A stretch of 64,000 nt of DNA from a candidate division FCPU426 bacterium (GCA_963830915.1 CAWHOE010000027.1:62589-126588), one strand, 5' to 3'; positions 55,043-57,531 are shown, numbered from the stretch's first letter. A program made the numbers and translations. Notes: a model not told the origin generated them from the letters alone.

Positions 55043-55882
55043 ATGAAACAACTAAGGCTTATCCTCATCCCGATCGTCTTGGCTTACCTGACCATTGTAG
55101 CCCTTTATGTGGGCTTTCAACGGAGCTTAATTTTCCACCCGACCCCGTCCTCGGGCGTCACGCCGAAATTCTATTCCCTGGACTATCAGGATGTTTATTT
55201 CACTTCTTCCGACGGTGTGACTTTGAACGGTTGGTGCATCCAGCACTCGCGTTCGGGGAAAAAAAGACCCTTCCTGCTTTATTGTCACGCCAATGGTGAC
55301 AATCTTTCCGACCTGGCCAATGTCACCCGGCTTTTTTATGACGACGGCTTTGACATGTTCTTTTTCGACTACCGTTCCTACGGCAACAGCCAAAAAGCGC
55401 CCGTCAGCGAAGCCGCCCTCGACCAGGACGCTCTCTCGGCCTATCAATGGGTGAAAGCCAAGGGGATATCGGACGACCGGATCATCCTCTGGGGCCATTC
55501 CCTGGGTTCGTCCGTGGCCGCCTGGCTGGCGACCCAAACCCATCCCGCGGGACTTATTTTAGAGGGCGCTTTCCCGTCCATTTATGACGTAAATCGCCAA
55601 AGGAATCCCTGGCTTCTGGTATTGCCCTTCATGATCAAGGATAAATTCCAGACCGCTTCCTATGTCCAGCAAAGGACCTGCCCTCTCCTGGAATTCCACG
55701 CCGAGTTGGACACCATCATCCCCATTCAGTTAGGCCAGAAGGTCTTTGAGAAAGCGGCAGAACCCAAGCAATGGGTTGTGGTGAAGGGTATCAACCATAA
55801 TGATTTCCCCAGCGTGGCGAATCAATACAAGCCGATCATTCAAGCGTTCGTGGAGAAATGTTTGGTGGGGAAAGAGTTGTAG
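55043..55882 (+). CDS. alpha/beta hydrolase (serine hydrolase, N-terminal membrane anchor)
   Basis: MKQLRLILIPIVLAYLTIVALYV anchor, HANGDN, nucleophile elbow GHSLGS, later D and H (INHNDF). Alternative starts at 55001 and 55031. Confidence 0.8.
   Translation: MKQLRLILIPIVLAYLTIVALYVGFQRSLIFHPTPSSGVTPKFYSLDYQDVYFTSSDGVTLNGWCIQHSRSGKKRPFLLYCHANGDNLSDLANVTRLFYDDGFDMFFFDYRSYGNSQKAPVSEAALDQDALSAYQWVKAKGISDDRIILWGHSLGSSVAAWLATQTHPAGLILEGAFPSIYDVNRQRNPWLLVLPFMIKDKFQTASYVQQRTCPLLEFHAELDTIIPIQLGQKVFEKAAEPKQWVVVKGINHNDFPSVANQYKPIIQAFVEKCLVGKEL
55693..55882 (+). repeat. direct repeat copy A (3' end of the hydrolase gene)
   Basis: 165 of 171 nt identical to 57345-57515. Only the last ~20 nt before each stop differ. 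Confidence 0.9.
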
Positions 55883-55986
55883 GCCCGGATTCCGGAATTT
55901 TTATCGTTTTGAACTTAACAAATACCTTTACCTACATTAGCCTGTATATGTTTGAGTTTTGAATAACTTTCGCCCAGGAATGTTAT

Positions 55987-56694
55987 ATGGAATACGTGGT
56001 TTATTGTGACGAAAGTCGTCAAGACGGGTCTTTAAAAAATCCTTTTATGACCATCGGCAGCCTTTGGCTGCCCCGTGATAAAAAAAACGCAATCACCCAA
56101 GAATTCAAACATTTATGCCGTGAATTTAAACTTAACTCCGAGATCAAATGGAGTAAAACCAGTCAAAAAAGTTTGAACTCCTATAAAAAACTCGTCGATT
56201 TTTTCTTTAAACATCCGGAAATAAATTATCGCGTTATTGTCGTTGACCAAAGAAAAGTGGACGCCGCCTTATATCATCGTGGTGATCAAGAATTGGGTTT
56301 TTATAAGTTTTACTATTTGCTTTTAATTCAATGGCTCACGCAAGGCAATCAATACCTGATTCTTTTAGATTTTAAGCAAAACAAAGGTTCGGACAGATAT
56401 TCGATGCTTCGAACCGTCCTTGATCGTAAGCTGAAAGGAACCGCCTGGATTTCCGATCTGACCATCATCGATTCCGCGCAAACACCATTGGCCCAACTTT
56501 GTGATTTACTGACTGGTGCAGTTTCGTCGACTTGGTGTAATGATCTGAAACCAAAAAGCGCGAAAGAAGATCTGGCTTTGTATATAGCGCAGAAATGTTC
56601 ACCCAATTCCCCTCCGCAATTTCAATCATTGAAAGTAATTTCTTCAAGCCCCAGCATAAGTAAATTCAACATATTTAAAATCGACCTTAAATAG
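55987..56694 (+). CDS. DUF3800 family protein
   Basis: VVYCDESRQDG (DE motif), SEIKWSKTS, and C-terminal IIDSAQTPLAQLCDLLTGAV match the DUF3800 pattern as I recall it. 235 aa, AT-rich. Confidence 0.8.
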   Translation: MEYVVYCDESRQDGSLKNPFMTIGSLWLPRDKKNAITQEFKHLCREFKLNSEIKWSKTSQKSLNSYKKLVDFFFKHPEINYRVIVVDQRKVDAALYHRGDQELGFYKFYYLLLIQWLTQGNQYLILLDFKQNKGSDRYSMLRTVLDRKLKGTAWISDLTIIDSAQTPLAQLCDLLTGAVSSTWCNDLKPKSAKEDLALYIAQKCSPNSPPQFQSLKVISSSPSISKFNIFKIDLK

Positions 56695-56708
56695 GAAGCT
56701 TGATCTAA

Positions 56709-57194
56709 ATGGATTTGAAGTCAATCATCATTCCCACTCAATATCTCAAGACTTCGGAAATTGAATTACTCGGAAGGCAAAAATACCGAGAGTTATACCT
56801 GACCCAAGGTAAATTCGGTATCCACTCAACACATGACCAACAACCGGTTTTCTTTTGGGAGGATCGATTCAACCACGCGTTTTTCACTTCTTCGGATCGC
56901 GCCAGATATCCTGACCGCAAGGATATTCTCGCTGTTGAACGGATTGAAAGAATGGCATGGATCGGGAAAGTGATATCGGGACAAGTACCAAATACAGGCT
57001 GTTGGGAAGGCCCCAGCCCAACCGGCAGACGGAAACCGCCCAATCGGTTTTATTTATCTTCCGATTTTCTTTACATTATTTGGTTGGAACCACGGTATGA
57101 AGGCGGCTGGAAATTTTCGACCGCTTATTCGGCGCTACCGCCGGTCATCCGTAAATACTGTGGGCAAGCAAGGAAAATTTGGGCTTATAAATAA
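56709..57194 (+). CDS. orphan 161-aa protein co-oriented with the DUF3800 gene
   Basis: Starts 14 nt after the DUF3800 stop. No TM helix or signal peptide. Features VFFWEDRFNHAFF, ERIERMAWIGKVI, and a basic loop PSPTGRRKPPNRF. No family recognised. Confidence 0.6.
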   Translation: MDLKSIIIPTQYLKTSEIELLGRQKYRELYLTQGKFGIHSTHDQQPVFFWEDRFNHAFFTSSDRARYPDRKDILAVERIERMAWIGKVISGQVPNTGCWEGPSPTGRRKPPNRFYLSSDFLYIIWLEPRYEGGWKFSTAYSALPPVIRKYCGQARKIWAYK

Positions 57195-57198
57195 AAAA

Positions 57199-57225
57199 GC
57201 CCCGTGATTGATGGGCTCACGGGGC
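57199..57225 (-). terminator. intrinsic terminator (canonical only in the minus-strand sense)
   Basis: gccccgtga/tcacggggc 9-bp stem. The A-run at 57193-57198 becomes the U-tract only for minus-strand transcripts. No T-run on the plus side. Confidence 0.5.
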
Positions 57226-57344
57226 CAGAAGCCATGTCCAACGCCATAAGGCGAGGAGTAACTGCTTAGTTACCTAAGCATCAAAAAAAGAATACTATCG
57301 TATACCAAAAAACGCAAGGGGTATTAAGCCTGAATTTTCAATGT

Positions 57345-57531
57345 ATTCCACGCCGAGTTGGACACCATCATCCCCATTCAGTTAGGCCAGAAGGTCTTTG
57401 AGAAGGCGGCGGAACCCAAGCAGTGGGTCGTGGTGAAGGGTATCAACCATAATGATTTCCCCAGCGTGGCGAATCAATACAAGCCGGTTATTCAAGCGTT
57501 CGTGGAGAAATGTTTAGAGGGGGGAAAGTAG
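57345..57531 (+). pseudogene. direct repeat copy B: orphan 3' fragment of an alpha/beta hydrolase allele
   Basis: In-frame ...HAELDTIIPIQLGQKVFEKAAEPKQWVVVKGINHNDFPSVANQYKPVIQAFVEKCLEGGK*. Differs from copy A by 4 synonymous changes, one I->V, and a different last 5-6 codons. Confidence 0.85.

Follow-up and report, generated by a model that had tools for sequence, protein, structure and literature searches.

A PDC-M04 cassette bracketed by two copies of a hydrolase gene end at a variable hotspot of candidate division FCPU426

Introduction

Small defence cassettes without mobility genes are found in hotspots and also in the middle of other defence operons, and how they enter these places is a practical question that is still open. 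Exchange through flanking homology is the usual suggestion, and such exchange is normally traceless. Here, we describe a locus that keeps a trace. It lies in a stretch of 64,000 nt from a candidate division FCPU426 bacterium (GCA_963830915.1 CAWHOE010000027.1:62589-126588); this whole stretch is referred to as the window, and coordinates count from its first letter. In the window, an alpha/beta hydrolase gene is followed by an AT-rich cassette that carries the gene pair PDC-M04, a defence candidate of the PADLOC database, and the 3' end of the hydrolase gene is found again on the other side of the cassette. The trace consists of this allelic duplication of a gene end, a repeat-bounded tract without single-nucleotide polymorphisms (SNPs) between two strains, and SNPs that are informative on phase; excision, reinsertion and crossover position are thus measurable in existing metagenomic reads.

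The unit of 1,652 bp, i.e., one copy of the hydrolase end plus the cargo, opens an AT-rich island that varies between strains, see Table 1. The island is located where the hydrolase meets a conserved HAD/gatBAC flank in convergent orientation, and what fills this site varies across FCPU426. We suggest, with a probability of about one half, that the PDC-M04 module (two proteins and an RNA) was added at this clade-wide hotspot by recombination between alleles of the hydrolase end, and that it is now exchanged by host homologous recombination with the gene-end copies as arms.

Results and discussion

The repeats on both sides of the cassette

A repeat search of the window finds a direct repeat of 185 nt at 55693-55877 and 57345-57529, with 94% identity and a spacing of 1,652 nt. 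The initial annotation, made from the window alone, had already pointed to this repeat, and the same identity is recovered here, with 6 mismatches in the first 171 nt (165/171 identical), as are the sharp left edge and the diverged final codons. In a pairwise alignment of the two copies there is no similarity 5' of 55693/57345, and the right limit of the repeat is each copy's own stop codon, the tails being ...CLVGKEL-stop in copy A and ...CLEGGK-stop in copy B. The longest identical run shared by the copies is 61 nt. There are two copies only, and no third copy of the hydrolase end is present in the 64-kb window or in 20.8 kb of a sibling strain.

The duplicated segment covers residues 217-279 of the hydrolase. 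S153, D223 and H252 are invariant in the hydrolase family and form the expected triad. The catalytic Ser153 is located outside the repeat while Asp223 and His252 are inside, and therefore any replacement end must be functional. Indeed, the reading frame of the hydrolase is restored in the window, and copy A keeps both D223 and H252.

Between copies A and B, five of the changed codons are synonymous and two nonsynonymous. A second repeat in the locus, from the 5' end of the GH2 gene (see below), has a ratio of 4:2, giving 9:4 for the pooled codons. In comparison, ~20% of random single-base changes in these codons are synonymous (pooled 9:4, P about 1e-3 or lower). This bias implies that the copies diverged while both were working genes. 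Judged from these codons, the two repeats are two alleles of the last 62 codons of the hydrolase, as the initial annotation had proposed.

Sharing of the cassette between two strains

A sibling strain, whose backbone is 97-99% identical to the window, has the same arrangement, and its sequence is 100% identical in three assemblies (JGI 3300033402, JGI 3300035696 and ENA ERZ27256877). In the comparisons below, L001 denotes this strain.

Tail A, the hairpin and T-run that follow it, and the cassette are contiguous and identical in both strains, and the left spacer (55883-55986) is 100% identical across all assemblies. The tail of copy B is instead strain-specific, EGGK-stop in the window versus a far more diverged ...QGFANKCLAGKQ-stop in the sibling strain. 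Each copy-B tail is also continuous with different DNA, a 160-aa gene in the former and a 332-aa gene in the latter, i.e., there are three different tail alleles, each tied to its own downstream DNA. The strain comparison thus supports that the gene-attached copy and its tail travel with the cassette, and that the distal copy is the displaced end.

The two strains differ at 47 sites in the region 54581-57512, and none of these sites falls in the 1,606 nt from 55790 to 57395. The divergence between the strains is 4.7% in the cupin gene, 1.8% in the 5' part of the hydrolase and 7% in copy B. From the flank rate (1.8-4.7%), 29-42 SNPs are expected in the tract (P about 1e-13 or lower). The SNP-free tract ends inside copy A on one side and inside copy B on the other. 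A tract with no SNP between diverged flanks means that the cassette was shared between backbones that had already diverged. This shows that the cassette has recently been shared between diverged strain backbones, in agreement with the mobile cassette of the initial annotation.

The alleles inside the repeat contain one more signal. At repeat offsets 66 and 84, copy A of the window and copy B of L001 have A and T, while copy A of L001 and copy B of the window have G and C. This reciprocal swap at two sites in two strains suggests a crossover to the left of offset 60 in one strain and to the right of offset 96 in the other. A fixed core of an attachment (att) site would give one crossover position, and the swapped alleles would point to homologous rather than site-specific recombination.

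Further recombination breakpoints between the strains are found at 57512, 58076 and 62408. There are also two other SNP-free tracts, 60164-62408, which ends at the next strain breakpoint, and 49240-49719, which starts exactly at the junction of the GH2 relic.

Two further scars in the same locus

The ribosome-binding site (RBS) and the first 21 codons of the GH2 gene are duplicated at 49163-49239 and 51886-51962 (92% identity, 2.7 kb apart), and this repeat brackets the left AT-rich block in both strains. The left block is 97.7% identical between the strains, i.e., it is diverged like the backbone. Within it, the window has one open reading frame (ORF) more than the sibling strain (51036-51878, Big_14 domain).

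A gene of 150 aa is present twice in the sibling strain, at 13577-14052 and 16785-17260 of L001, the repeat spanning the whole gene from stop codon to RBS (95% identity). The two copies bracket an insert of three genes: a 362-aa ORF, a DUF5131 gene and a 276-aa protein that matches PDC-M41A (3e-72). The insert is absent from the window, where a single chimeric copy (o164, 58088-58582) is a left/right mosaic of both L001 copies. With three unrelated repeat sequences in one locus and no recombinase nearby, one general process is a simpler explanation than several lost integrases.

The hydrolase end is a hotspot in the clade

In the related species for which the upstream flank is included in the fetched locus (~10), the gene order is FtsK (on the minus strand), a membrane transporter, GH2, in some cases the cupin, and the hydrolase, with the transporter abutting GH2. 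Downstream, all 20 relatives with readable sequence have a convergent HAD-family hydrolase after the hydrolase, followed in most of them by gatB, gatA and a 94-aa gene, which is taken to be gatC. The gap between the hydrolase and the HAD gene is 0-170 nt in ten of these species, while the other ten have 0.4-3.1 kb of differing DNA, for instance an unknown 565-aa protein, a ParB-HTH protein with an alcohol dehydrogenase, or an NYN-like protein. With conserved flanks and ten empty as well as ten differently filled sites, the hydrolase end is a genuine, clade-wide hotspot with conserved core flanks and variable content. Both empty and differently filled sites are thus found in related genomes, and the recombination hotspot that the initial annotation had placed at this gene end holds across the 20 species.

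In the species of the window, the DNA at the hydrolase end is AT-rich over more than 8 kb, and its right edge lies past the end of the window. The GC content is 41% in the cassette, compared to 56% in the core block. After copy B it is 42%, in line with the AT-rich DNA that the initial annotation had noted there. This DNA varies between strains, and its genes are not found in any of the 20 related species, where the downstream GC is host-like. The AT-rich block between the transporter and GH2 (48.3-51.9 kb) is likewise an insertion relative to the clade, in which the two genes abut.

The fillers of the ten other species are not surrounded by hydrolase-end or att-like repeats, and a conserved attB site in the clade was therefore rejected. 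One relative has a split hydrolase (L026, 8813-10603). This is not a similar event, as the ~960-nt insertion encodes a 309-aa IS1595-like transposase with a zinc ribbon and a DDE domain. In the 90% cluster of the hydrolase there is no full-length member with a B-type tail.

A proposed mechanism based on host recombination

The initial annotation had found no integrase, transposase or inverted repeats in the cassette, and a domain scan together with inspection of the ends confirms this. Domain scans found no recombinase among the ORFs of the island in either strain, and phmmer searches with IntE, PinE and XisE, which are a weak test, found none either. A transposon or insertion sequence (IS) was rejected, as there is neither a transposase nor a pair of terminal inverted repeats with a short target duplication. 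An integron cassette was rejected as well, since inspection by eye revealed neither an integron integrase nor attC-like R''/R' boxes.

We suggest that the gene-attached allele, i.e., tail A with its terminator, would have come in with the cassette, and that the distal allele would be the displaced resident end. The unit could have entered, and could still move between strains, by host homologous recombination inside the hydrolase end. A possible route is a Campbell-type single crossover of a circularised fragment; alternatively, the arms of an equivalent double crossover could have been copy A plus the upstream gene on one side and copy B on the other. A dedicated recombinase would not be needed. 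Later, copy B and the mirror-image relic of the GH2 5' end may act as homology arms for swaps of neighbouring cassettes. RecA dependence and a circular or bridging intermediate are parts of this scheme that we infer, as is the way in which the illegitimate junction 57344/57345 first arose.

In favour of this mechanism, there are three scars of one kind in unrelated sequences (the hydrolase 3' end, the GH2 5' end and the whole-gene repeat of L001). Breakpoints fall in repeats, SNP-free tracts abut junctions, alleles are mosaic, and no mobility proteins occur in the DNA examined.

Several points weigh against it. Homologous recombination alone leaves the first formation of the 57344/57345 junction unexplained, and the footprint is nearly the same as that of a real integrase, e14 in icd. 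The absence of a recombinase covers the window and the sibling island only, and the phmmer part of that search is weak. The allele swap comprises two sites in two strains, and a phasing error in the repeat or two gene conversions could mimic it. Since other SNP-free tracts occur in the island, the tract over the cassette may partly reflect a normal import of alleles by a strain in which the cassette was already present. Finally, no empty-site strain of this species was found, as the metagenome scan returned the sibling strain only.

Site-specific integration and other alternatives

In the first alternative, an element with a tyrosine or serine recombinase, whose attP contained the last ~185 nt of the hydrolase, integrated as e14 does and then decayed to a remnant flanked by att sites, similar to a cis-mobilizable element (CIME), or else a minimal islet was mobilised in trans by a recombinase whose gene is located elsewhere. 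The initial annotation had read the repeats in this way, as an attL/attR-like footprint with a replacement end. Measured here, the e14/icd footprint is 165 nt long and 92.7% identical, with 9 synonymous and 2 nonsynonymous changes; it has a sharp left edge and ends at the stop codon. The element-borne copy is attached to icd, and icdC is the displaced end. The window therefore matches e14/icd feature by feature: in length, identity, synonymous bias, the sharp internal left edge, the end at a stop codon, the element copy on the gene and the defence cargo. The allelic repeats, the cassette-linked copy A and this anatomy are the parts of the footprint that hold. In addition, CIMEs keep attL and attR without the genes for integration and transfer, and they are often found as tandem arrays and at gene 3' ends (PMC5704250). 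Islands commonly contain decayed elements and partial copies of att sites (bioRxiv 10.1101/2020.12.28.424599), and AT-rich strain-variable DNA follows copy B.

However, neither the cassette nor the island nor the window contains a recombinase or a remnant of one. Neither the hydrolase C-terminus nor its DNA was found on viral contigs, where it could represent an attP, and no attP-bearing relative was found in viral, metagenome and genome scans; nor is there a third copy of the repeat. The arms are without arm-type repeat motifs, and a search for arm-type binding motifs or terminal inverted repeats at the cassette gave nothing convincing. The allele pattern suggests differing crossover positions in the two strains, and the two further scars of unrelated sequence would each require a lost recombinase of their own. 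The fillers of other species and 20 other PDC-M04 loci are without such flanking repeats. On the other hand, the footprint can hardly be distinguished from that of e14 in icd, and for this reason an integrase origin of the first insertion is kept as the main, if somewhat unlikely, alternative. Should the repeats be a decayed e14-like att pair, the locus would be an ordinary case, and still a clean example from an uncultured phylum.

An import of a single block, a fragment of 8.1 kb (49240-57344) with the left cassette, the genes from GH2 to the hydrolase and PDC-M04, is very unlikely. Such a fragment would derive from a lineage ~93% identical and be joined by two illegitimate events, leaving 77 nt of the resident GH2 5' end and 185 nt of the hydrolase 3' end as relics. 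It would explain why both relics are distal and both intact genes proximal, symmetrically around one core block of 4 kb, and why the relics are similarly diverged (92% and 94%) with a synonymous bias in both. But with 4 kb of internal homology, homologous recombination would be expected for such a fragment rather than two illegitimate ends, and the left cassette is 97.7% identical between the strains while the PDC-M04 cassette is identical, i.e., the two sides are of different age.

An origin in situ appears still less probable. Here, the hydrolase end would have been duplicated in tandem by slippage or unequal exchange, foreign DNA would have been inserted between the copies, and the extra copy would have decayed neutrally. 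Tandem paralogs are indeed present in the neighbourhood, namely o160/o164 in the window and the o150 pair in L001. But the copies differ mostly at synonymous positions, as functional alleles do and a decaying pseudogene does not, each of the three tail alleles goes with its own downstream DNA, and the cassette is identical between strains with diverged flanks.

The chance that the repeat is an assembly artefact, i.e., that the haplotypes of two strains were assembled one after the other or that a repeat was collapsed or duplicated, is negligible even for metagenomic data in which several strains of the species co-occur, as the same structure is present in five independent assemblies. It is seen in the window and in three long contigs, which derive from different samples and assemblers. 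Two Logan unitig contigs from other runs (ERR10755936 and SRR9711196, k=31) match the window to 100% over 55805/55815-57374 and cross the unique junction between the cassette and copy B. The longest identical run of 61 nt is shorter than the k of 141 of the MEGAHIT contig, so that contigs of this k resolve both copies. Neither of the two findings that the initial annotation had named as fatal to its claim, an assembly artefact or relatives all having the identical arrangement with host-like composition, is seen.

The PDC-M04 proteins

Returning to the cargo of the unit that we suggest was added by recombination between hydrolase-end alleles, the initial annotation had listed a DUF3800 gene and a 161-aa orphan. 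Both genes are present at that place and are AT-rich, but the second is not an orphan. The DUF3800 protein matches PADLOC PDC-M04A (PDLC04353) over the full length (1.4e-59; Pfam DUF3800 1.3e-10), and the 161-aa protein, which has no match in Pfam, matches PDC-M04B (PDLC04359; 3.3e-15). The two genes are neighbours on the same strand, 14 nt apart.

The model of the DUF3800 protein (predicted local distance difference test score, pLDDT, 91) matches the catalytic subunit of RNase HII/H2 in Foldseek (1EKE and 3PUF, E 2e-5, probability 1.0), and the D-E, D128 and QxxD columns are invariant in the DUF3800 alignment. By this model, PDC-M04A has an RNase H2-like nuclease fold, in agreement with Mestre et al. 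2020 and Altae-Tran et al. 2023. PDC-M04B has 8 homologs, and its model (pLDDT 90.7) matches no fold in the PDB.

PDC-M04B is always adjacent to DUF3800 in 20 other loci. At 19 of these 20, the pair is located between a DUF1156 methylase and a DUF499 ATPase, 3' of an SNF2/NOV_C helicase (Hma-type), while it is stand-alone in the window and in one metagenome-assembled genome (L105). The closest DUF3800 relative (69%), on a short contig with the DUF3800 gene only, adjoins a type I restriction-modification methylase; the cassette and its closest relative do not share a non-coding end. None of the 20 other loci has flanking repeats, so that the repeats are not an intrinsic property of the cassette. 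PDC-M04 as phage cargo was also rejected, as a single distant viral homolog was found.

A conserved RNA beside the pair

The initial annotation saw the cassette as two genes only. However, the 150 nt between the stop codon of the partner and copy B carry a conserved RNA. Of these 150 nt, 59 are 90% identical to the same position of an unrelated PDC-M04 locus, whose proteins are only ~52-58% identical. An element of ~92 nt is common to five independent cassette lineages. On the minus strand, it has an invariant T-A-n-n-n-T box ~7 nt before a conserved GAUGC and three hairpins, with a U-rich tract 3' of the last hairpin in three of the five lineages; also in three of five, the TGA stop of the partner falls inside the first hairpin arm.

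Covariation supports this structure. RNAalifold predicts 24 pairs for the five lineages; compensatory changes are found at 7 pairs, and 95% of cells pair, compared to 33-43% when the partners are slid; none of 500 shuffles reaches the covariation of this alignment. The core of hairpin 2, linker and hairpin 1 was aligned for 14 distinct sequences including phage copies. Its 16 pairs are paired in 96.4% of cells (32-49% when slid), with 7 compensatory pairs versus 2.1 +/- 1.0 in shuffles (0/500). The strand is fixed by one core pair that is U.G in seven of the sequences. The window, 7 related loci and the viral copies match no Rfam 15 family at the gathering score or at E<=10, and weak minus-strand matches were dismissed as terminator-driven noise.

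The T-A-n-n-n-T promoter box is at a fixed distance and invariant in the five lineages, and -35-like boxes were read from the sequences. A simple scanner gives the promoter 8/12, just under its threshold, and the promoter is thus a putative one. The right edge of the cassette (57344) is only 27 nt past the putative -35 box, which makes the insert a complete, tightly trimmed module. As far as can be judged from sequence, the cargo is therefore a complete and tightly packed candidate anti-phage module of PDC-M04A, PDC-M04B and a convergent three-hairpin RNA, the defence function being predicted.

A frame resembling a small peptide, PVIDxLTGPEA(M/L)SxAIRRG, overlaps the RNA at 57195-57266 (plus strand, after the stop of o161) and is also seen in a C-terminal extension of the homolog P0245 and in L192 (756-1067, minus strand). 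A small peptide gene was rejected, since in two lineages frameshifting indels or stops interrupt the PVIDxLTGPEA-like frame while the base pairing is kept, and the frame is probably a by-product of RNA conservation.

The RNA core is also found outside the cassettes. A 19-nt piece of it occurs on 14 uncultured viral contigs, where less than one match is expected by chance, and a looser scan added two more copies. At 10 of 15 viral loci, the core lies within a tRNA gene cluster or adjoins one, with core and tRNA genes on one strand. Tblastn detects no PDC-M04 protein at these loci, and the core has no match in records of cultured phages or plasmids. It can be speculated that PDC-M04 is a three-component protein-RNA immune module in which the RNase H2-like nuclease works with, or is restrained by, the RNA. 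The core in phage tRNA clusters would then be a copy that the phages took over as a decoy or antidote, or, conversely, a phage-type RNA would serve the defence system as bait. The module would also travel without a recombinase as a 'Campbell unit' of 1.65 kb, with a piece of a core gene as its portable homology arm. As a whole, we regard this scenario as distinctly unlikely.

Independent of that scenario, the PADLOC models of PDC-M04, an untested candidate, miss a conserved RNA component, and the long-unexplained RNAs associated with DUF3800 are tied to a defence context. The relatives of the RNA in phage tRNA regions are a lead for phage-host conflict at the RNA level.

Other features of the island and its surroundings

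The features of the locus are collected in Table 1. At the right, the strains diverge at 62408, 33 nt inside the 3' end of the ParB_N-like gene (62375-63457), where the SNP-free tract of 2,245 nt ends. The sibling strain retains only the last ~11 codons of this gene (L071, 20165-20301). All three sibling contigs stop ~136 nt past 62408, which suggests a repeat or a hypervariable point.

The genes after copy B (57584-62314, minus strand) encode two paralogous secreted proteins of ~160 aa (45% identical), an 884-aa protein and a 365-aa lipoprotein-like protein; these genes have no match in Pfam, PADLOC or PHROG. Between GH2 and the cupin gene, an ORF of 207 aa (53815-54438) has host-like GC content, is absent from all related species and matches no family. 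Intergenic palindromes with heptamers of the CACAGAG(T/A)C type, which resemble repetitive extragenic palindromic (REP) elements, are located at 42480-42608, 44156-44322, 53766-53806 and 54450-54570 and at 6760-6797 of L001. One such palindrome stands in place of the extra 280-aa ORF in the sibling strain.

Table 1. Features of the locus in window coordinates, and viral contigs that carry the RNA core.
Feature	Position	Strand	Description
AT-rich left cassette block	49240..51899	+	ORFs of 248, 137, 211 and 280 aa, between GH2 5' relic and intact GH2; GC 38%
Mirror-image GH2 relic	49163..49239	+	Copy of GH2 RBS and first 21 codons, 2.7 kb 5' of real start (51900)
Alpha/beta hydrolase gene	55043..55882	+	279 aa, true start ATG 55043; Pfam Hydrolase_4/Abhydrolase_1; 279-aa gene call in sibling strain
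Repeat copy A	55693..55882	+	Last 62 codons and stop of intact hydrolase; tail VGKEL-stop; cassette-linked; no between-strain SNP from 55790 on
Left spacer	55883..55986	+	Hairpin and T-run right after hydrolase stop, then AT-rich DNA up to DUF3800; read from sequence
PDC-M04A, DUF3800 protein	55987..56694	+	Predicted RNase HII/H2-like fold; PADLOC PDLC04353, Pfam DUF3800
PDC-M04B, 161-aa partner	56709..57194	+	PADLOC PDLC04359; fast-evolving, no known fold
Structured small RNA	57192..57284	-	Convergent with A-B operon; H3 57263-57280, H2 57237-57257, H1 57199-57225, U-tract 57192-57198
Putative RNA promoter	57289..57317	-	-10-like TATTCT 57289-57294, -35-like TTGCGT 57312-57317, 17-nt spacer; inferred
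Repeat copy B	57345..57531	+	Displaced hydrolase 3' fragment, 57-aa ORF, tail EGGK-stop; putative left homology arm of next variable segment
Rest of AT-rich strain-variable island	57532..64000		o160 and o164 (paralogous small secreted proteins), 884-aa protein, 365-aa lipoprotein, ParB_N-like protein; right end outside window
Viral contigs with RNA core	L111, L153, L168, L192, L194, L199, L226, L228-L236		Invariant GUGAGCC...AAUCACGG

Comparison with known systems

The cargo can be compared with two known groups. In PADLOC-DB v2, PDC-M04 is a 'guilt-by-embedding' defence candidate, and PDC systems in general are candidates only (Payne et al., bioRxiv 10.1101/2024.01.29.577857). Both proteins of the window match the A and B models, while the context differs, since the other pairs are mostly part of the helicase/DUF1156/DUF499 operon and the pairs of the window and L105 are not; the PADLOC models are also without the conserved RNA. 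Weinberg et al. 2017 described 11 unrelated RNA motifs of unknown function beside DUF3800 genes (PMC5737381). Like these motifs I-XI, the RNA of the window is a conserved, covarying RNA that adjoins a DUF3800 gene and has a terminator-like hairpin end. It differs in that it matches no Rfam 15 model and that its core is also found in phage tRNA clusters without DUF3800. By its sequence, it looks like a further class of DUF3800-associated RNA.

For the insertion itself, the closest likeness is e14/phage 21 in icd of E. coli K-12. There, too, the inserted DNA supplies a replacement 3' end, the frame of the enzyme stays intact and the old end survives distally (185 nt, 94% and 5:2 in the window), and defence genes, lit and mcrA in e14, are cargo. 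However, e14 is a 15-kb prophage remnant with intE, xisE and pinE, while the insert of the window is 1.46 kb without a recombinase. No related full element was found for the cassette, and the allele pattern suggests variable crossover positions.

CIMEs have lost the genes for integration and transfer and kept attL and attR, e.g., in the ICESt1/ICESt3 family (PMC5704250). The cassette is similar in that only cargo is located between the repeats and mobility genes are absent, the att role of the repeats being putative here. In CIMEs, however, the att sites are short and are defined by the integrase of a cognate integrative and conjugative element or integrative and mobilizable element, and no such element, integrase or third copy was found here. 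Tycheposon-shaped islands of Prochlorococcus (bioRxiv 10.1101/2020.12.28.424599) also grow from one proximal site, contain partial copies of the target gene among their cargo and consist mostly of DNA that is not an active element. They differ by their tRNA gene targets and by integrase-bearing elements in the population, none of which is seen at this locus.

Finally, hotspots that are independent of mobile genetic elements are diversified by homologous recombination at their core flanks (Oliveira et al. 2017, PMC5635113). Such exchange, when it occurs by double crossover replacement, 'would not leave scars', as stated for the core defence hotspots (cDHS) of P. aeruginosa (Johnson et al., PMC10250203). 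The locus of the window shares with these hotspots the conserved core flanks, the variable content, the lack of mobility genes, the lower GC content, the defence cargo and the breakpoints in flanking genes. In contrast, the event at this locus was additive: it left an allelic gene end in duplicate, and scars of this kind occur here three times.

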